A stretch of 28,385 nt of DNA from a virus. How positions within the stretch are numbered: position 1 is the stretch's first letter; each line of letters opens with the position of its first letter. This document shows, piece by piece, positions 12,753 through 22,259 of this stretch. The notes below the pieces were generated by a model. The model did no database searches. It saw only the letters and a list, made by a program, of their open reading frames with translations, and was not told the DNA's origin. The position numbers and the translations under genes are program-made. The stretch lies in UHGV virus genome UHGV-0037349, one strand, 5' to 3'.

Positions 12753-14519
12753 ATGAACACCACACTGACACCCGCAGATCTCGATCCCCGTCGGCAGGCC
12801 ATGCTGCTGTACTTTCAGGGATACCGCGTAGCCCGCATTGCTGAAATGCTGGGCGAGAAAGTTGCAACCGTTCACAGCTGGAAAAAACGCGACAAGTGGG
12901 GTGACTATGGGCCGCTGGATCAGATGCAGCTCACCACCGCCGCACGCTACTGCCAGCTCATTATGAAGGAGCACAAAGAAGGGAAAGATTTCAAAGAGAT
13001 TGACCTGCTGGCGCGCCAGTCTGAGCGCCACGCGCGGATCGGCAAGTTTAACAATGGCGGCAACGAAGCCGACTTAAATCCTAACGTCGCCAACCGCAAC
13101 AAAGGCCCGCGCCGTCAGCCGGAAAAGAACGTTTTCACCGATGAACAGATTGAGAAGCTGGAAGAAATCTTCCATTCCTCCATGTTCAACTACCAGCGCC
13201 ACTGGTGGGAAGCCGGAAAAACCAACCGCATCCGCAACCTGCTGAAGTCACGCCAGATCGGCGCGACCTTTTACTTTGCCCGTGAAGCCCTGATTGACGC
13301 CCTGCTTACCGGGCGTAACCAGATTTTTCTTTCCGCCAGTAAGGCACAGGCCCACGTCTTTAAGCAGTACATCATCGACTTCGCCAAAGAAGTGGAGGTG
13401 GAGCTGAAAGGCGATCCGATGGTGCTTCCTAACGGGGCCACGCTTTACTTCCTCGGCACCAATGCCCGCACGGCCCAGAGTTATCACGGCAACCTGTATC
13501 TGGATGAATATTTCTGGATACCGAAATTTCAGGAGCTACGCAAAGTGGCTTCCGGTATGGCTATTCACAAGAAATGGCGGCAGACCTATTTTTCCACACC
13601 ATCCAGTCTGACCCACAGTGCTTATCCGTTCTGGTCCGGTGCGCTGTTCAACCGTGGGCGCAACAAAGCTGACAAGGTGGACATCGACCTGTCCCACAGC
13701 AATCTGGCCCCCGGCCTGCTGTGCGCAGACGGGCAATACCGTCAGATAGTCACCGTGGAAGATGCGGTGCGCGGCGGCTGTAACCTGTTCGACCTCGACC
13801 AGTTGCGCATGGAGTACAGCCCGGACGAATACCAGAACCTGCTGATGTGTGAGTTCGTGGACGATCTCGCGTCCGTGTTCCCGCTCAGCGAGCTGCAGGC
13901 GTGCATGGTGGACAGCTGGGAAGTCTGGACCGACTTTCATGCACTGGCGCTGCGCCCGTTTGGCTGGCGCGAAGTGTGGATCGGTTATGACCCGGCAAAA
14001 GGTACGCAGAACGGCGACAGTGCCGGATGCGTGGTGGTGGCTCCGCCAGCCGTGCCGGGTGGTAAGTTCCGCATTCTTGAGCGTCACCAGTGGCGCGGGA
14101 TGGACTTCCGCGCCCAGGCTGACGCCATCAAAAAACTCACCGAACAGTACAACGTTACGTATATCGGTATCGACTCGACCGGCGTTGGTCACGGGGTTTA
14201 TGAGAACGTGAAAGCGTTCTTTCCTGCCGTCCGGGAGTTTGTCTATAACCCCAATGTTAAAAATGCCCTGGTACTCAAGGCCTACGACATTATCAGCCAC
14301 CGCCGTCTGGAGTTTGACGCCGGACACACCGACATTGCGCAGTCATTCATGGCAATCCGTCGCGCAACCACCGCCAGCGGCAACCGCCCGACCTATGAAG
14401 CCAGCCGCAGCGAAGAAGCCAGCCACGCCGATCTGGCCTGGGCAACAATGCACGCACTGTTTAACGAACCGCTGCAGGGCGAATCCGCCAATACCAGCAA
14501 TATTGTGGAGATTTTTTGA
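12753..14519 (+). CDS. Terminase large (ATPase) subunit (P2 P-like)
   Basis: 588-aa ORF divergent from the capsid operon; N-terminus with LLYFQGYRVARIAEMLG is characteristic of P2-family gpP as I recall it. Confidence 0.9.
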   Translation: MNTTLTPADLDPRRQAMLLYFQGYRVARIAEMLGEKVATVHSWKKRDKWGDYGPLDQMQLTTAARYCQLIMKEHKEGKDFKEIDLLARQSERHARIGKFNNGGNEADLNPNVANRNKGPRRQPEKNVFTDEQIEKLEEIFHSSMFNYQRHWWEAGKTNRIRNLLKSRQIGATFYFAREALIDALLTGRNQIFLSASKAQAHVFKQYIIDFAKEVEVELKGDPMVLPNGATLYFLGTNARTAQSYHGNLYLDEYFWIPKFQELRKVASGMAIHKKWRQTYFSTPSSLTHSAYPFWSGALFNRGRNKADKVDIDLSHSNLAPGLLCADGQYRQIVTVEDAVRGGCNLFDLDQLRMEYSPDEYQNLLMCEFVDDLASVFPLSELQACMVDSWEVWTDFHALALRPFGWREVWIGYDPAKGTQNGDSAGCVVVAPPAVPGGKFRILERHQWRGMDFRAQADAIKKLTEQYNVTYIGIDSTGVGHGVYENVKAFFPAVREFVYNPNVKNALVLKAYDIISHRRLEFDAGHTDIAQSFMAIRRATTASGNRPTYEASRSEEASHADLAWATMHALFNEPLQGESANTSNIVEIF

Positions 14520-15547
14520 TGGGAAAGAGTAAGAAGAACCGCGCTGCGGCGACGAAACAGATCCAGCTTAAAAGCCAGACTACAGCCGAAGCATTCAGCT
14601 TCGGCGATCCCGTTCCTGTTCTGGACCGCCGCGAACTGCTGGACTATGTGGAATGCGTACAGACAGATCGCTGGTATGAGCCACCAGTAAGCTTTGACGG
14701 ACTGGCGCGCACCTTCCGCGCTGCCGTGCATCACAGTTCACCAATTGCGGTGAAATGCAACATTCTGACCAGTACCTACATCCCTCACCCGCTGCTCAGC
14801 CAGCAGGCTTTTTCACGTTTTGTGCAGGACTATCTGGTTTTTGGTAACGCCTACCTGGAAAAACGCACGAACCGCTTCGGAGAGGTCATCGCTCTTGAGC
14901 CTGCGCTGGCAAAATACACCCGACGCGGATTAGACCTGGATACCTACTGGTTTGTGCAATACGGCATGACTACGCAGCCGTATCAGTTCACGAAAGGCAG
15001 CATTTTTCATCTGATGGAACCGGACATCAACCAGGAGATCTACGGCCTGCCCGGTTATCTTTCTGCCATTCCGTCAGCCCTGCTCAACGAGTCCGCCACG
15101 CTGTTCCGTCGAAAGTATTACATTAACGGCAGTCATGCAGGCTTCATCATGTATATGACCGATGCCGCGCAGAACCAGGAGGATGTGAACAACCTCCGCA
15201 ATGCGATGAAAAGCGCCAAAGGCCCTGGCAACTTCCGCAATCTGTTTATGTACTCGCCTAACGGCAAAAAGGACGGACTTCAGATTATCCCGTTGTCAGA
15301 AGTCGCAGCGAAGGATGAGTTTCTGAATATCAAGAACGTGAGCCGTGATGACATGATGGCTGCGCACCGCGTGCCGCCGCAAATGATGGGGATAATGCCT
15401 AATAATGTTGGGGGGTTTGGGGATGTGGAGAAGGCAAGCCTTGTTTTTGTGAGGAATGAGTTAATACCATTACAGAGAAGACTAGAAGAGTTAAATAACT
15501 GGATAGGAGATAAAATCATATCCTTTGGAATATACACATTAAATTAA
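14516..15547 (+). CDS. Portal protein (P2 Q-like), with AT-rich, possibly replaced C-terminal tail
   Basis: 343-aa ORF overlapping the P stop by 4 bp. The last ~40 codons are strikingly AT-rich compared with the rest of the gene. Confidence 0.85.
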   Translation: MMGKSKKNRAAATKQIQLKSQTTAEAFSFGDPVPVLDRRELLDYVECVQTDRWYEPPVSFDGLARTFRAAVHHSSPIAVKCNILTSTYIPHPLLSQQAFSRFVQDYLVFGNAYLEKRTNRFGEVIALEPALAKYTRRGLDLDTYWFVQYGMTTQPYQFTKGSIFHLMEPDINQEIYGLPGYLSAIPSALLNESATLFRRKYYINGSHAGFIMYMTDAAQNQEDVNNLRNAMKSAKGPGNFRNLFMYSPNGKKDGLQIIPLSEVAAKDEFLNIKNVSRDDMMAAHRVPPQMMGIMPNNVGGFGDVEKASLVFVRNELIPLQRRLEELNNWIGDKIISFGIYTLN

Positions 15548-15575
15548 ATGAGTAAGGGCTAGGCCCTTACTCATT
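15547..15575. terminator. Perfect 13-bp inverted repeat between convergent portal and RT genes (probable bidirectional terminator or junction palindrome)
   Basis: aATGAGTAAGGGC-tag-GCCCTTACTCATt overlaps the stop codons of both Q (plus) and the RT (minus). Flanking sequence is AT-rich but has no clean U-tract. Confidence 0.4.
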
Positions 15576-16544
15576 CAATCTATCAATATATTCACTATAG
15601 TTAACATGCCCCTTAATTTTATCAAAATCCTTCTCAACTATTTTCCCAGTCCTCAATAAATGTTTATATGCTCTAATTTTATTTCGATAGCCTTTAGTCA
15701 ATCTAGGTTTATTTTCATGAACTAGAAAACCATGTACTTTTAATCTATTAGGAATCCTAGCTATTCTGAGTTTTTCCTCAGCCACAACCCAATTATCAGA
15801 TAGTAACAACTCTACAACATTATCTTTAAGTTCCTCGATATCAAATGTTTCATCATCACCGGAGAAGGTCAAATCATCAGCATATCTAGTATATTTAATA
15901 CCCGTATTAGAAATCAACTCATTAATCTTTAAGTCAGTTGACCTAAATACTAAATTTGAGATAACAGGGCTACTTGGCGCACCTTGCGGAAGTCTCTGAT
16001 TAAAGGTAAGTAATTCACTCAATTTAGCAGCCTGATCGGCTCTATATCCTATTTCAACTAATGTTGAAATCACTATATCTGAAGTGATCGTATGGAAAAA
16101 ATCTCTTAAATCAATAGACAGGATCCATTTTGCACCACAATGTTTACTTGCAGCTTCATATATCCCATTCTTACCTGGGATAAAAGCATATGCATTTTCA
16201 CTTATGCCAAGACTATGATTAATGCTTAAATGATGAGCGACCCAAGACTGAATGATTTTTATACTAACCTTGGGTGCTTCAATAATTCTTTTTTTCTTTC
16301 CTCTTCCTTTGGAAATAGAAAAAACACGATAGTATTTTGACTTATTCTTAATTAACGAAGTAATAAATTGTGGGCTTACACCAATGGCAACAGACAAGAT
16401 ACTCCAAGAAACTAATGGGGGAAGCCTGAGGCCTTGTAGTCGAATAAGTTCCGCATAATATCTATCTCTCAGCGGTGTGCTCAACGCCTTAAGAAACTGT
16501 TCGGCATCAGTGAATGTGAAAAATAAGGGTAGTGGCGTTTTCAT
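15567..16544 (-). CDS. Retron-type reverse transcriptase
   Basis: 325-aa ORF with RT motifs: FIPGKNGIYEAASKHCGAKWILSIDLRDFF (retron-like F-x-G ... H ... DIxxFF block), LPQGAPSSPVISNLV, YTRYADDLTFS (YADD catalytic box), and a downstream VHGFLV segment resembling the retron VTG region. Size fits retron RTs (about 300-330 aa) and is too small for the Abi-type RTs I recall. Confidence 0.8.
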   Translation of the reverse strand: MKTPLPLFFTFTDAEQFLKALSTPLRDRYYAELIRLQGLRLPPLVSWSILSVAIGVSPQFITSLIKNKSKYYRVFSISKGRGKKKRIIEAPKVSIKIIQSWVAHHLSINHSLGISENAYAFIPGKNGIYEAASKHCGAKWILSIDLRDFFHTITSDIVISTLVEIGYRADQAAKLSELLTFNQRLPQGAPSSPVISNLVFRSTDLKINELISNTGIKYTRYADDLTFSGDDETFDIEELKDNVVELLLSDNWVVAEEKLRIARIPNRLKVHGFLVHENKPRLTKGYRNKIRAYKHLLRTGKIVEKDFDKIKGHVNYSEYIDRLNE

Positions 16545-16715
16545 AAGGTCAATCCTTAAGCAAAGCTGATGAAAACTTTCGTTGATGACGCCTGCGAATC
16601 AGCAGACGTTTCGAAGGAACGACTGCTGATTCGCAGGCGCACATTCTGTCCGCGACCTTCACAAATGAGCATGATGCATACTCTCGTGAACGCCACTACC
16701 AACGTGAATATACCA
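16545..16715 (-). ncRNA. Candidate retron msr-msd non-coding RNA (intergenic region with long perfect hairpin)
   Basis: 171-bp gap between the upstream ORF and the RT. It contains a 17-bp perfect inverted repeat (CGCCTGCGAATCAGCAG / CTGCTGATTCGCAGGCG, 16589-16605 and 16623-16639) with a 17-nt loop and no U-tract behind it. Exact RNA ends and the a1/a2 repeats were not resolved by eye. Confidence 0.4.
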
Positions 16716-17459
16716 CTATAGATGTTTGCGTGCAAGATAAAGGACCCTCTCTATATCAGAACTTTGCCTAGATTTAGTCACTGGAACTATTTCTAACCCT
16801 GACAATGTCATTCTATAAGTTCCGTCATGGCTTCTTAATAAAAATCCTTTCTTACGTAAGTTGTCTAGCTTCCCATTCAGCCAATCAAGTGATTCAATAT
16901 GATAATCGCCATTATCAAGTTGACTGAACAATCTTGGAAGATCAAAGGGCTGACATTTTTTTGCCGCTCTTAAAATAACCATCATTGTAGGTTCAGGATT
17001 GTTTTTAGCCTCATATACAAATGAAGTCACTTTTATATTAAAACCGTTTAATATCCCTACAACTAACGACTCCCACTTCTCGCGTTCTGATAATGTAAGG
17101 TTTTTACAAAAGACATAAAGCACTGCGTTTTGCGAATCAAAGAAAGATAAATTCAAATCAGATATCTTCCCTTTTTTAAAATTACTTCTCGCTAATGCCA
17201 CTAAAGCCGCTTCAATATTGTCTTTATCTGAAAATGGTGAGTAACTAATCAACACTCTTACATTTAGCTTTTCTGTTATTCGTTTCACCAATAAAGATAT
17301 CTGGCGTTTTGTTATACTATTCGAAGCAGACAATGGCACTATTTTGTTAATTGGGATGATCAACAGAATTGTATCCATAAAATCTGTTACATCTTTAACT
17401 TTTATGAACGGGAATTTTACCAACAATTCTGATAATATTTTCTGGTTAGACAAAGCCAA
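16716..17459 (-). CDS. Hypothetical protein, retron-associated (candidate effector/accessory protein)
   Basis: 247-aa ORF co-oriented with the RT, AT-rich, and overlapping the upstream ORF by 14 bp. No catalytic motif recognised; the C-terminal segment (LRKKGFLLRSHDGTYRMTLSGLEIV) could be a winged-helix-like region, which is speculative. Confidence 0.55.
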   Translation of the reverse strand: MALSNQKILSELLVKFPFIKVKDVTDFMDTILLIIPINKIVPLSASNSITKRQISLLVKRITEKLNVRVLISYSPFSDKDNIEAALVALARSNFKKGKISDLNLSFFDSQNAVLYVFCKNLTLSEREKWESLVVGILNGFNIKVTSFVYEAKNNPEPTMMVILRAAKKCQPFDLPRLFSQLDNGDYHIESLDWLNGKLDNLRKKGFLLRSHDGTYRMTLSGLEIVPVTKSRQSSDIERVLYLARKHL

Positions 17460-17970: not shown

Positions 17971-18029
17971 AGTGGTGCCTACCCTTTTAATATCTCTCCT
18001 ATATATAACAAAACGCGGCTAATTTCCAT

Positions 18030-18065
18030 ATTTGCGCGCGCTCGTATCCCCGCCACGCCTGCCCG
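18030..18065. other. Probable cos site (cohesive end region)
   Basis: Minus-strand reading GGCGTGGCGGGGATACGAGCGCGCGC resembles my recollection of P2/186 cohesive ends (GGCG(A/T)GGCGGGGAAAGCA...). Position between portal-side genes and the early region is as expected. Recalled from memory, not verified. Confidence 0.45.
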
Positions 18066-18102
18066 CTTTATGTAGTGGTTTTCATGCAGGTGCATGATCT
18101 AC

Positions 18103-18128
18103 GCAAAAGCCCGCCAGTTCTGGCGGGC
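18103..18128 (-). terminator. Rho-independent terminator-like hairpin
   Basis: GCCCGCCAG-ttc-CTGGCGGGC perfect 9-bp GC-rich stem; on the minus strand it is followed by TTTTG. Lies ~270 bp downstream of the 219-aa gene. Confidence 0.35.
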
Positions 18129-18398
18129 TTCAGCTAAAACGATCCTCAAACGATCATGCGGATTCATGCAGCATAGACATGCACCTGTGCGCCTTTAATC
18201 AAACAGGGAATAATTATTTGTTCAGCGGGAGTAGCAATATAGCGGCGGCTATTGGTTTGGAAGGGCTTATGATGACTGTTTTTGGTTAGAGTTTGAACGC
18301 CCAACATCGCCGGGCGGTGGTATTACTACATCATGGCAATGAGAAGGGTGAACCCTTTGCCAGTTTGTCCGACGATGATGTCCATCCAGAGTAAGCGT

Positions 18399-19058
18399 TT
18401 ATTCTGTTGAGATTGTAGATATTTCGGCTTGTTTTTTCTCTATGTAGATCCGACATTCCGCAAGGCATTTACCTACGGCACCACCGAAGTTTGGCCCTGA
18501 CGAAAGCAGCAATGCATCGACATTCTTGATTGATTCAAAGAAGGAAGGTGAGGTTTCAGGATTAAGGTATGTCATCAATAACATCCTTGCTGAAAGGGTG
18601 CGATGCGATGATGTAATGTAGCTTTCATGTGCTGCATTTCTCTTATCAATAAAATCGTTATTACCCTTAAGAATGTAATCCATTGCAAGGTTATAATCGT
18701 TTTTGTACCTATTAGATTCAAGCGCTAAGGATAGGTACTGGGCACATGATTCCCGCACGTTCCGACATTCTTCTTTTTTTATCTCAATTTCCGTAGCAAT
18801 TTGAGTTTGCACTTTCAGTGCTTTGGTTTGCTGCGCAATATTTTTGTCGAATTCAGATGCTTGCCGTTTTGAGGTGATTTCAAATTGGCGGTGTGAACGA
18901 TTCATAGCCCGCCATGCAACAAAAGCAGTTGCCGCAGCTGGCAGAACAGCTTTTGCGAGGTCAAACCATGGAGTCAGGGGCTCCTTTTGACTCGCAATTT
19001 GTACCGTTACCACGTCTTTAGCGGGCTTCAGTACTTCCAATAACTGAATGATGTCCAT
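18399..19058 (-). CDS. Hypothetical single-pass membrane protein (cargo between cos and the DinI-like module)
   Basis: 219-aa ORF with one predicted TM helix (LAKAVLPAAATAFVAWRAM) followed by a charged helical region; AGGAAAAAGG upstream of the ATG. No homology recognised. Confidence 0.55.
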   Translation of the reverse strand: MDIIQLLEVLKPAKDVVTVQIASQKEPLTPWFDLAKAVLPAAATAFVAWRAMNRSHRQFEITSKRQASEFDKNIAQQTKALKVQTQIATEIEIKKEECRNVRESCAQYLSLALESNRYKNDYNLAMDYILKGNNDFIDKRNAAHESYITSSHRTLSARMLLMTYLNPETSPSFFESIKNVDALLLSSGPNFGGAVGKCLAECRIYIEKKQAEISTISTE

Positions 19059-19259: not shown

Positions 19260-19493
19260 TTAATGCAGCCAGCTGTCGTCTTCCCACACCTTCTGCATAA
19301 TTTTCATCACTTGTTTTCTTTCTTCGTCCAGTTGCAGTCCGGTCAGTTCCACACCGTTAGAGCTACCTTTGCGGATACGAATTACCGTTTTGGGATACAG
19401 GGGGCGCAGATTGCGGTAAAGCTCGGATTCAAGGGCGTCCAGGATAGACTGGCTAATCTTCTGCTCTTTATCGATCATTATTTCAATGCGCAT
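19260..19493 (-). CDS. DinI-family protein
   Basis: Start taken at internal ATG 19493 (MRIEIMIDKEQ...) with GAGGTGA upstream. The C-terminus IMQKVWEDDSWL resembles the DinI C-terminus as I recall it (ETWESADDWF). The ORF track extends it to 19565. Confidence 0.6.
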   Translation of the reverse strand: MRIEIMIDKEQKISQSILDALESELYRNLRPLYPKTVIRIRKGSSNGVELTGLQLDEERKQVMKIMQKVWEDDSWLH

Positions 19494-19503
19494 AAAAGTC
19501 ACC

Positions 19504-19692
19504 TCAACTGATGACATCCATTGAGCGGTTGTATTCGTGGGTTCTGATTTTTGCCATGAGTTCATCTGTTAGTTCAGAAATCCACTGCAAAGCCAGCCCC
19601 TTCTCTTCATCACTACACTCACTAGCCGCTACAAGCTTAAGAAAAAAATCAATGCGCTGGAGCTTCAAAGACTCCAAAAAATAGTCCTGCAT
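19504..19692 (-). CDS. Small hypothetical protein, first gene downstream of the LexA box (Tum-region-like)
   Basis: 62-aa ORF immediately upstream of the DinI-like gene; the upstream extension of the DinI ORF overlaps it in another frame. Confidence 0.35.
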   Translation of the reverse strand: MQDYFLESLKLQRIDFFLKLVAASECSDEEKGLALQWISELTDELMAKIRTHEYNRSMDVIS

Positions 19693-19844: not shown

Positions 19845-22259
19845 TTAATACAGGTTCCGCCACTTATCATCTTCCTGCAAACGCTGGTTCCGATAGAAGA
19901 TACGCAGGCCTGCTCCTGACGGAATACTGCCGCCACGAAGGAGTAAATAGACCTCTTTCTCGCTGCCATCAAATCCTCTGGACTTCAGTTCATAGACGAG
20001 CTGCTGTCGCTGATGGTCTGTAATTCGCTGTTTGTAGTCTTTACGCCGTTTCGGTTTCACCAAGCGTAACCTTGCAGCCAATTCCCGGCGCTCTTTTTTG
20101 CTCATACTGTGCAGGTATTCGTGCAACTCCTTGTCATCCATGCGGGTAATGTCCGTTCTGGTATCCCCATCAGCTGATTTGTCTTTCCCTTGTTGGTTCA
20201 AATTTTCAGCCAGGGGACAGTTATTGCCACGAGTCCAAGGGGCGCAAGCGCCCTGGTCGGCTGCCGCCTCCTGAACGTCAACGGCCTTACGAACCATTTT
20301 CCACTTCACTGCATGAGTGCAGATCTTGCCCTCTGCAATGGGTGACCAGATGCCATAAATACGAATACCGTGATCACCATAGGCGGTCGGCTCTTCGTTG
20401 ATTTCATAAGCGGTTCTGATCAAGTGATATTTGCGGGGAACCAACACGCCGCCCTGCTTCATAATGTAGGTGGCAAAACAGCCAGCATCAGCAGCAGCCA
20501 GAATGGCATCAAGACGCGGATCATCCAGTACCGGCGCACCTGCTTTTTTGTCACCCTGCTGCCTTGCCGCCTGACCAGCCAGCAATCGCAGTTCACGGTA
20601 AGCCTGACGCCCCGGAATGCCAAAGAAGCGGAATTGCTGAACACGATGCAGAGACGCCCAAGCATTAACGTATTCAGCGTTATCACGCAGGGATTTACCC
20701 GTTTCCTTGCTGATCTCGCCAGCCAGACCACGCCCGTCAATGTTCTTACTGATGTATTTCGCGATGTAGCTTGTCGGCGTTCCTTTGCGCGGGTTAATCA
20801 GCTCAGACTTAAAGCGTGGCCCCGTGTTATTGCCCAGTTCCTCGCGGTCTTCACGGATGGCAAACTTACGCAGTAATGCAGTGATGGCGCGGCGGTCTTT
20901 TTTACGCATGAAGCACATGAGATGCCAGTGCACAGTACCGTCATGATGCGGCTCAGCCACCCGCACGCCATACCACCGCAATCCGGCTTTGTGCATCGCC
21001 TTACGAAATGCAGCAAACATGCCGACCAGATAATCACTGCTTTGTCTTACCGTCGCATTTGTCCAGGTCGGGTTTGGTCTGCCGTTATTGAGCGTGGAAT
21101 GGAAACGTGACGGACAGGTGATGGTGTAGAAAACGGCGCAGTCACCGCGCATTTCCGCGATAAGCTCCAGACCTTTAACGCAGGCCATCATCTCATTGCG
21201 GCGATGTGCCGGGTTGCTGCTGCTGGCGTTTACCACATCTTCCATATCCAGCGTGTCTCCGTCTTCGTTCACCAGTTCATGAGAACGGAAAAACTCCAGC
21301 GACTTGCGGCGCTGCTCACGTTTATGCGTCACTGCTTCATAGCTGACATAGGGAGATGCTTTTTTGCTGACCAGACAGACAGCACGCAACTGCTCTTCCC
21401 GCCATTCGCAACGCATCTTCCACAATTTTCGATACCACCAGTCGGCGCAAAGCATACGTGCCAGCGAACCCGGTATGAGTTCATAGGGCACAGGTTTGCG
21501 GCGGTTTCTTTTCCGACGAAGTTTCTCAAACGCAGGCGGGATAACATCCAGACGCAGGGTTTCCGCAGCCACCTTTTCCCATGTCTTGCGGATTTCTTCT
21601 GGCTTAACGTCATCGGTGGCGTACAAATCACCACAAGCGGCCTCAAGACACATGCTCATATGCGCTGCTACCAGGGTGGACAGGCGTTTCACCTGATCCT
21701 GGCTCATTTCAGGCAGGATCAGCAGCCCCTCCAGCCCTTGATGGCTTGCCATAAAACGGAAAGAAACAGATAGCTGACTGTCACGTACACAATCCAGTCG
21801 CTCCAGACATGGCTTAATCGTCTCACGCAAATAGCGGGAATAAGCCTTTGGCCTGCCCAGGCTGCTGAAGTATTCGATACGTTGCATCAGCGGCTTGCTG
21901 ATATGAGAAGGCTGGGCGCTGACATCTGCCAGAATGACCATGTCCGGGTTAAAACGCTGCTGCTCATGCGCCAGCTTTGCCCGGCTAATGAGCTTATCCT
22001 GCTCCATTTCGCGCTGGACAGGATCACGGGATTCATTAAAGAAATAACGCTCCCAGACCTGCTCACTCAGTGCCTCGCGGCGCAGTTGTTCCTGCTCGTT
22101 ATCGGCAGCGTACAGAGTGATCAGGTTTGAAAGTGCAGACTCCGGCGCAACTTCCGCCGGATCCAGATAAGGGTTAATGGCCTTTTTCGGGCCGTTCCAT
22201 GAAAATGCTGCGGCAGCCTCGTTAAAGCCGCTAGAGTTGCTCATATCGTCATGACTCAT
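19845..22259 (-). CDS. Replication initiation endonuclease (P2 A-like rolling-circle initiator)
   Basis: 804-aa ORF with HUH-like motif (TVHWHLMCF) and a downstream tyrosine motif (YIAKYISK); start overlaps the Dam stop. Confidence 0.85.

Follow-up and report, generated by a model that had tools for sequence, protein, structure and literature searches.

A probable type IX retron msd stem-loop in the cos-proximal hotspot of a P2-like prophage

Type IX retrons combine a clade 7 (type IX) reverse transcriptase (RT) with an upstream HEPN-like gene and a winged-helix (WH) gene, which overlap each other by about 8 bp (Mestre et al. 2020, PMC7736814). The HEPN-like proteins of this type do not carry the canonical Rx4-6H motif and have a conserved histidine and a conserved arginine (PMC7736814). 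In July 2026, preprints described three members of the type: Retron-Kva2 from Klebsiella variicola (Hayashi et al.; Hibshman et al.; bioRxiv 10.64898/2026.07.14.738597 and 10.64898/2026.07.11.737809) and, from Salmonella enterica subsp. arizonae and Yersinia intermedia, Sen3 and Yin1 (Carabias et al., bioRxiv 10.64898/2026.07.14.737667). For all three, the production of msDNA and an anti-phage defence that depends on RT and HEPN have been demonstrated. The msDNAs of Kva2 and Sen3 were sequenced, and Kva2 was solved by cryo-EM (PDB 36ht). In these homologues, defence is lost with a YADD mutant, with an H64A mutant and upon deletion of the msd loop; in Kva2, deletion of the msd stem-loop likewise abolishes it.

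The msDNA of Kva2 has been mapped by sequencing: nucleotides G45-C120 of the non-coding RNA (ncRNA) are reverse-transcribed, and dG1-dA5 of the product are trimmed by ExoVII (Hayashi et al.). The msdDNA stem-loop spans dT6-dA63 in the cryo-EM model. The cDNA starts at C120, which adjoins a small third stem-loop and lies away from the long terminal repeat. From cDNA 5'-end sequencing, Hayashi et al. proposed a branching G just after stem-loop 3 (their G139), facing G121, whereas the other Kva2 paper describes priming at the inverted repeat. The former proposal sets type IX, with its cDNA start by stem-loop 3 and a branch 3' of the msd, apart from the canonical retrons (Ec86/Eco1, Ec78/Eco7 and others), in which the branching G stands just after a2 and reverse transcription begins beside a1.

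The window analysed here, a 28,385-nt stretch of the virus genome UHGV-0037349, very probably contains a further member of this type, located in the cos-proximal hotspot of a P2-like prophage, and a long hairpin upstream of its RT gene is read here as the msd stem-loop. Its features are collected in Table 1.

Table 1. Features of the retron locus in window coordinates
Feature	Position	Strand	Remarks
HEPN-like RNase effector (toxin), 174 aa	17446-17970	-	PADLOC HEPN_IX, 1.4e-52
Winged-helix / KH-HTH accessory protein, 245 aa	16716-17453	-	TTG start; PADLOC HTH_IX, 1.5e-61
Promoter-like element	16707-16735	-	TTGCAC (16735-16730), 17-nt spacer, TGgTATATT extended -10 (16715-16707)
Whole retron ncRNA (msr-msd), 173 nt	16528-16700	-	bounded by a 12-nt inverted repeat; same length as the Kva2 ncRNA
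Terminal repeat, 5' arm (a2-like), GGUAGUGGCGUU	16689-16700	-	from repeat search; invariant in 10 enterobacterial loci
msr stem-loop, ncRNA G18-C34	16667-16683	-	homologue of the element held by the Kva2 RT thumb
msd template, ncRNA nt 45-120	16581-16656	-	Kva2 mapping by homology
msd stem-loop (probable)	16589-16639	-	17 perfect pairs, U.U mismatch (A.A in cDNA), 4 pairs
msd hairpin loop, CCUUCGA	16617-16611	-	7 nt
Stem-loop 3, ncRNA 122-139	16561-16580	-	flanked by G121 (16580) and G140 (16561); Kva2 homology
Terminal repeat, 3' arm (a1-like), AACGCCACUACC	16528-16539	-	within RT codons 2-6 (KTPLP)
Retron reverse transcriptase, 325 aa	15567-16544	-	YADD 221-224, R73, F75; Pfam RVT_1
Perfect 13-bp hairpin, 3-nt loop	15547-15575		in the 19-nt gap (15548-15566) between the convergent portal and RT stops

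The operon runs HEPN, WH, ncRNA, RT, which is the gene order of type IX retrons. The open reading frame directly behind the hairpin, taken for an RT gene in an earlier sequence-only reading, indeed encodes a retron RT: it matches the PADLOC model RT_IX at 6.2e-129 over protein residues 1-324 and model positions 1-316 of 317, while the next best retron type in PADLOC reaches 5.9e-67. Against the Retron-Kva2 RT (PDB 36ht_A), it gives 2.6e-145 and 487 bits at about 64% identity. The HEPN protein matches its Kva2 counterpart (PDB 36ht_I) at 5e-67 and conserves H64, R122 and Y40-42. In the WH protein, R50 and K57 are present, as are the residues that contact the msDNA tip (D197, R200, K201, R207), and its TTG start codon (17453) overlaps the HEPN stop codon (17446) by 8 bp. 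Pfam and NCBIfam returned no matches for the WH and HEPN reading frames; for HEPN, the missing Pfam match is expected of the divergent type IX group. The locus thus has an RT with an intact YADD motif, a HEPN protein with H64 and R122, an 8-bp WH overlap and a structured ncRNA between WH and RT; as in canonical retrons, perfect 12-nt a1/a2 inverted repeats are found at both ncRNA ends. At the other end of the RT gene, the arms of the hairpin at 15547-15575 run into both stop codons, that of the portal gene and that of the RT. This hairpin is likely a bidirectional terminator that ends the retron operon.

The resemblance to Kva2 extends from gene order to single nucleotides. Both systems have a HEPN protein of 174 aa, a WH protein of 245 aa, an ncRNA of 173 nt with the same layout, the same catalytic residues, the same loop tip, the same stem-base nucleotides (dA8, C9, G10, C58, G59, C60, A61) and the same termination region (A42, G44, G45). 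The RT, by contrast, has 327 aa in Kva2 and 325 aa in the window, at about 64% identity. The nucleotide comparison was made with a Kva2-like locus of K. variicola (L094), whose RT differs from PDB 36ht_A by five substitutions and whose ncRNA has 173 nt. This locus carries every Kva2 nucleotide named by Hayashi et al. except "A51" (likely a slip), namely G1, A17, G18, C34, A35, A42, G44, G45, A52, A115, C120, G121, G139 and C173 of the ncRNA, and dG1, dA5, dT6, dA8, dC9, dG10, dG16, dT31, dG33, dA34, dG36, dT50, C58-A61, dA63, dT64, dG68, dT69, dA70 and dC76 of the msdDNA. The window agrees with it at all 22 msdDNA positions checked except d70, where it has C and L094 has A. Among the ncRNA positions named, the two differ at U51 (G in the window) and by a shift of one nucleotide at G139/G140: stem-loop 3 is 1 nt longer in the window, so that G139 of Kva2 corresponds to window G140. 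Overall, 157 of 173 ncRNA positions match (16 differ), as do 68 of the 76 in the msd (8 differ). Within the msd, two stem pairs are swapped in a compensatory manner, and one G-C pair below the tip in Kva2 is A.A in the window. The surroundings differ too: L094 adjoins a SIR2-domain gene and does not lie in a P2-like prophage, whereas the window retron does.

K. variicola carries at least two type IX retrons, one in a P2-like prophage with an RT 80% identical to that of the window (L002) and the Kva2-like L094 (about 64%). The species name alone therefore does not identify Kva2. The identification of L002 as Retron-Kva2 was rejected, as 36ht_A reaches only 487 bits against the window RT, while P0018/L094 differs from 36ht_A by five substitutions and fits the nucleotides named by Hayashi et al.

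Sen3 and Yin1 share the operon and even the residue numbering of RT D223/D224, HEPN H64 and WH D197/R200/K201/R207. The msDNA of Sen3, at 71 nt, has the length predicted for the window after trimming, and one of the Sen3 primers holds the a1 sequence of the window, GGTAGTGGCGTT. The primers also reveal synonymous and amino-acid differences, such as "GND" in place of the window's "GDD" behind the YADD region, and I for V102. As far as the primers allow a comparison, Sen3 is therefore a close but distinct allele. With canonical retrons, the window shares an RT of the retron clade (PDB matches between 1e-34 and 1e-15), a terminal inverted repeat, an msr stem-loop on the RT thumb, a long msd hairpin and the principle of an msDNA that restrains a toxic effector. 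It differs from them in having two accessory proteins, HEPN and WH, both encoded upstream of the ncRNA as is usual for type IX, and an a1 arm inside the RT reading frame. The window retron is thus an allele of a family defined in 2020 and structurally dissected in 2026, and brings no new mechanism. That it makes an msDNA with the ends given below and provides defence is inferred from these relatives, with RT identities of 64% (Kva2) or higher (Sen3).

The similarity to active systems also bears on whether the locus is a relic that has kept its RNA structure but makes no msDNA and provides no defence, for example through the stem changes near the tip. The complete retron is rare, with 3 occurrences among 5,426 complete E. 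coli genomes, and the eight msd differences from Kva2 include one mismatch in the upper stem, both of which would suit decay. Against this, all three reading frames are full-length with intact catalytic residues, the nucleotides of the loop tip and the base triples are all kept, and the remaining stem changes are compensatory. Moreover, the ncRNA of an independent Salmonella contig (L004) is identical to that of the window. A relic is thus very improbable. The K. variicola locus L002 differs from the window ncRNA by 5 nt.

The hairpin lies in a 171-nt gap that separates two minus-strand genes. On the minus strand it reads CGCCTGCGAATCAGCAG (16639-16623), TCGTTCCTTCGAAACGT and CTGCTGATTCGCAGGCG (16605-16589), and its arms are exact reverse complements. 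The sequence-only reading had proposed a perfect 17-bp stem with a 17-nt loop as a candidate msd stem. The stem was confirmed, but the loop proved to be shorter: in a repeat search, the arms lengthen to 22 nt (16589-16610 and 16618-16639), are complementary at 95% and enclose 7 nt; the supposed loop therefore holds a U.U mismatch and four further pairs, and the true loop is CCUUCGA. From the end of the stem to the ATG of the RT (16544), 44 nt were measured, close to the 45 nt given before. It is the longest perfect hairpin within the window. Given its base composition, a window of this length should contain about 4.5e-5 perfect stems of 17 bp or more (loop 3-30), and the longest perfect stems in 20 shuffled windows had 9-13 bp, which bears out the earlier judgement that such a stem is unlikely by chance. 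The proposed role as msd stem was, in turn, supported by the type IX genes, the ncRNA layout, covariation and homology to Kva2.

Strong, GC-containing and placed between genes, behind two that share its strand, the stem could also serve as an intrinsic terminator or attenuator of the HEPN-WH transcript, with the RT expressed separately. This alternative is very unlikely. As the sequence-only reading had remarked, the hairpin makes a poor terminator: no U-tract follows the stem, the next bases being UCAUCAACGAAAG, and a terminator scan reported nothing at the site. Nor does a 22-bp stem capped by an invariant loop of 7 nt resemble a terminator; in homologues, the corresponding segment is reverse-transcribed. 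Furthermore, a conserved -10-like element is found ahead of the ncRNA, and not behind the hairpin. This extended -10-like element, TGGTATATT (16715-16707), ends 6 nt before ncRNA nucleotide 1, and its TATATT hexamer is preceded by TTGCAC at a distance of 17 nt. In each of the 10 enterobacterial loci, the pattern TGnTAnnnT stands 6-7 nt ahead of the ncRNA, with varying discriminator bases. The element escaped a consensus promoter scan, because its -35 matches only 3 of 6 positions. The conserved TGnTAnnnT pattern suggests a promoter that would start an ncRNA-RT transcript at about 16700. Such a position, upstream of the ncRNA, would be the opposite of an RT promoter downstream of the hairpin.

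The fold of this presumed transcript is in keeping with a retron RNA. The 177 nt of RNA around the hairpin fold at -82.1 kcal/mol (z = -8.5 against shuffles), and a search for flanking a1/a2 repeats returned a perfect 12-nt terminal inverted repeat, GGTAGTGGCGTT / AACGCCACTACC, at 16700-16689 and 16539-16528, spanning 173 nt. Two of the checks that the sequence-only reading had recommended, folding of the minus-strand transcript and the repeat search, thus came out in favour of a retron. The fold of the 173 nt is made up of four elements, with the long hairpin standing between two small stem-loops (5' and 3') and a helix closing the whole. The RT residues P4 and P6 are invariant among 23 RTs, and the bases at 16528-16544 are therefore under a double constraint, from the RNA helix and from the coding sequence. 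The Shine-Dalgarno sequence and the ATG of the RT also fall inside the ncRNA in this region; processing of the ncRNA would take away the start of the RT mRNA. No family matched the ncRNA region in Rfam at gathering thresholds, and the E-value mode gave only look-alikes of miRNA precursors, at 15-20 bits compared with gathering scores of 49-100, and no retron family. As Rfam holds no family for the type IX ncRNA, there is no match to an independent curated model.

Conservation was examined in 19 type IX loci, comprising 10 enterobacterial loci including the window, with RTs 58-87% identical to the window RT (or the window itself), and 9 distant loci from Chromobacterium, Paraburkholderia, Shewanella, Paracoccaceae and others, with RTs 37-43% identical by tblastn. 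A profile scan of genome contigs with generic peptide patterns gave at least 9 distant type IX loci and about 70 retrons of other types among the matches listed. The close relatives, none of which was among the matches listed in that scan, were gathered by searching contigs that encode related proteins. In all collected type IX loci, HEPN and WH homologues lie upstream of the RT. The ncRNA is conserved far above the proteins in the enterobacterial loci, with a mean column identity of 90% compared with 58-87% for the RT, and RNAalifold recovers four ncRNA helices from them.

The long hairpin covaries throughout. Compensatory changes occur at all 22 pairs of the 19-locus alignment, 91.8% of the cells are paired, a share that drops to 30-46% in controls with the partner shifted by 1-3 columns, and none of 500 column shuffles reached the observed covariation. 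Compared with the window, the distant loci have stems of unrelated sequence, as in Chromobacterium (CAGCCTGTCTAACGGCAGCTG), whereas the loop CCTTCGA is almost invariant and its core CTTCG invariant. Among the other elements, the msr stem-loop is paired in 100% of the cells, with compensatory changes in 3 of its 7 pairs, and stem-loop 3 in 94% (19 loci each). The terminal helix shows compensatory changes in 6 of 11 pairs among type IX loci; distant loci have exchanged the terminal repeat for other self-complementary end sequences. Across Proteobacteria, covariation thus supports all four helices. This pattern of covariation fits a single strand that is forced to fold and whose tip is read by a protein, unlike that of a terminator or of a duplex operator. 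Whether selection acts on the RNA or on the cDNA strand is equivocal from the wobble pairs of the stem: one column has A.C in the RNA (T.G in the DNA) in 6 of 10 enterobacterial loci, and another has G.U in the RNA (C.A in the DNA) in 3 of 10.

The same data weigh on the idea that the hairpin is a palindromic operator in duplex DNA, through which the WH/HTH protein would autoregulate the RT. The base-specific contacts that the WH helix-turn-helix makes with the loop-tip sequence would lend themselves to such a role. However, a stem whose sequence is free to vary while its pairing is kept is the signature of a folded single strand, the conserved bases sit in the non-palindromic loop, and the structures show the helix-turn-helix touching the tip of the single-stranded msDNA hairpin. 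An operator is, therefore, as poor a candidate as a terminator, and the hairpin remains best explained as the msd stem-loop. A template repeat of a diversity-generating retroelement (DGR) was rejected, since no direct repeat of the TR/VR type was found and the RT belongs to the retron clade.

Two smaller structures were noted in the alignments. Stem-loop 3 carries the motif G-AAAG-loop-CUUU-G-C in 17 of the 19 loci. The two exceptions, from Paracoccaceae (L007) and Shewanella (L009), have msd loops that deviate around the CTTCG core (CCCTTCGGG and GCTTCGCT), and may represent a sub-variant with a different priming region. In addition, RNAalifold predicts a 6-bp helix, AGGUCG/UGACCU, between 16653-16658 and 16545-16550 (ncRNA 43-48 and 151-156), which links the stop site of reverse transcription to the spacer preceding the RT ATG. 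Apart from one G-U to A-U change, this helix does not vary among the 10 enterobacterial loci; it is absent from the distant loci, whose ncRNAs do not have that spacer.

By analogy with Kva2, the msdDNA of the window is predicted to be the plus strand from 16581 to 16656, 76 nt in length, GTTGATGACG...CCGCGAC. After trimming by ExoVII, a mature msDNA of 71 nt starting at 16586 would be expected. The 76-nt cDNA folds at -28.8 kcal/mol (z = -8.0), with the hairpin as its stem-loop. The start of the cDNA at C120, assigned by the same homology, lies 41 nt before a1 and adjoins G121 and stem-loop 3. Since the Kva2 cDNA starts beside stem-loop 3, the a1/a2-like repeat may not be the priming duplex. 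The ncRNA could then be a topological permutation of the canonical retron RNA, with priming at G140 (16561), which stands at the foot of stem-loop 3, on the 3' side of the msd; this arrangement is put forward tentatively, at slightly less than even chances. In it, the 12-nt terminal repeat would serve not as a priming duplex but as a clamp, delivering the 5' msr stem-loop to the RT, and the msDNA would be branched to a 3' fragment of the RNA. The one line of support that the present analysis adds is that 17 of 19 loci keep G-AAAG...CUUU-G, a conservation that fits a functional role and does not pinpoint the branch point.

If the window retron works like Kva2, Sen3 and Yin1, its RT would hold the msr stem-loop, prime on the 2'-OH of a guanosine, copy the ncRNA from C120 back to G45 (16581 to 16656 in the window) and then stop. 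RNase H would remove the template and ExoVII would trim 5 nt, leaving an ssDNA of about 71 nt that folds into the msd hairpin. RT, msDNA and WH would wrap a HEPN dimer in a higher-order assembly and thereby block the composite H64/R122 site. The WH helix-turn-helix would build this assembly by reading the invariant loop tip (dT31, dG33, dA34, dG36) of a neighbouring msDNA. Upon infection, the msDNA might be cut by a phage nuclease, such as Exo of Bas24 or B14T of Bas14, or remodelled by a phage DNA-binding protein, such as D5 of T5. B14T is a PD-(D/E)XK nuclease that cuts at the base of the stem. The freed HEPN protein would then cleave tRNA and rRNA, so that growth stops and the phage fails (abortive infection). 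The three preprints differ on the trigger, which is either nuclease cleavage or D5 binding, and on the assembly, which is described as a sheet, a ring or an asymmetric complex.

The msd of the window is a natural variant, whose lower stem is perfect over 17 bp and whose tip has an A.A mismatch beneath it, and it could be compared with those of Kva2 and Sen3 for sensitivity to phage triggers. The analysis further adds an annotation of the ncRNA and of the complete defence operon. In the three E. coli genomes with the complete retron, the RefSeq annotation lists a "reverse transcriptase family protein" and hypothetical proteins, without an RNA feature.

The retron is surrounded by genes of the P2 type: those for the scaffold gpO, the terminase gpP and the portal gpQ (14516-15547, plus strand) on one side, and that for the replication protein gpA (19845-22259, minus strand) on the other. 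Between the HEPN gene and gpA, an 82-nt stretch (18019-18100) is common to more than 1,200 E. coli genomes with P2-like prophages at 92-97% identity, and also occurs in Fels-2-like and Klebsiella P2-like phages. Inspection by eye revealed GGCGTGGCGGGGATACGAG in this stretch (18059-18041, minus strand), which resembles the cohesive-end core of P2 and 186. The P2 cos 19-mer is absent from the window within 3 mismatches. With this cos-like core in the stretch, the retron fills the slot between cos and gpQ, where Fels-2 has an unrelated ORF of 565 aa. The interval between gpA and gpQ is the cos-proximal defence hotspot of P2-like phages (Rousset et al. 2022). The same module occupies the same slot in the K. 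variicola prophage (L002), in the Salmonella contig (L004) and in a Pantoea contig (L090). A type IX retron thus rides in the cos-proximal hotspot of P2-like prophages of E. coli, Salmonella, K. variicola and Pantoea.

The half of the hotspot on the gpA side is occupied by a minus-strand ORF of 219 aa (18399-19058), which lies between a DinI-like gene and cos and has no match in Pfam, PADLOC or NCBIfam. At this place, a different hypothetical gene is found in Fels-2, and the ORF may therefore be further cargo. A terminator-like hairpin (18107-18130) with a T-run lies behind it. The DinI-like ORF itself (19260-19565, minus strand; NCBIfam PRK10597, below the curated cut-off) is located downstream of gpA, as in Fels-2 and PsP3 (TumB), and is an ordinary feature of the P2-like backbone.
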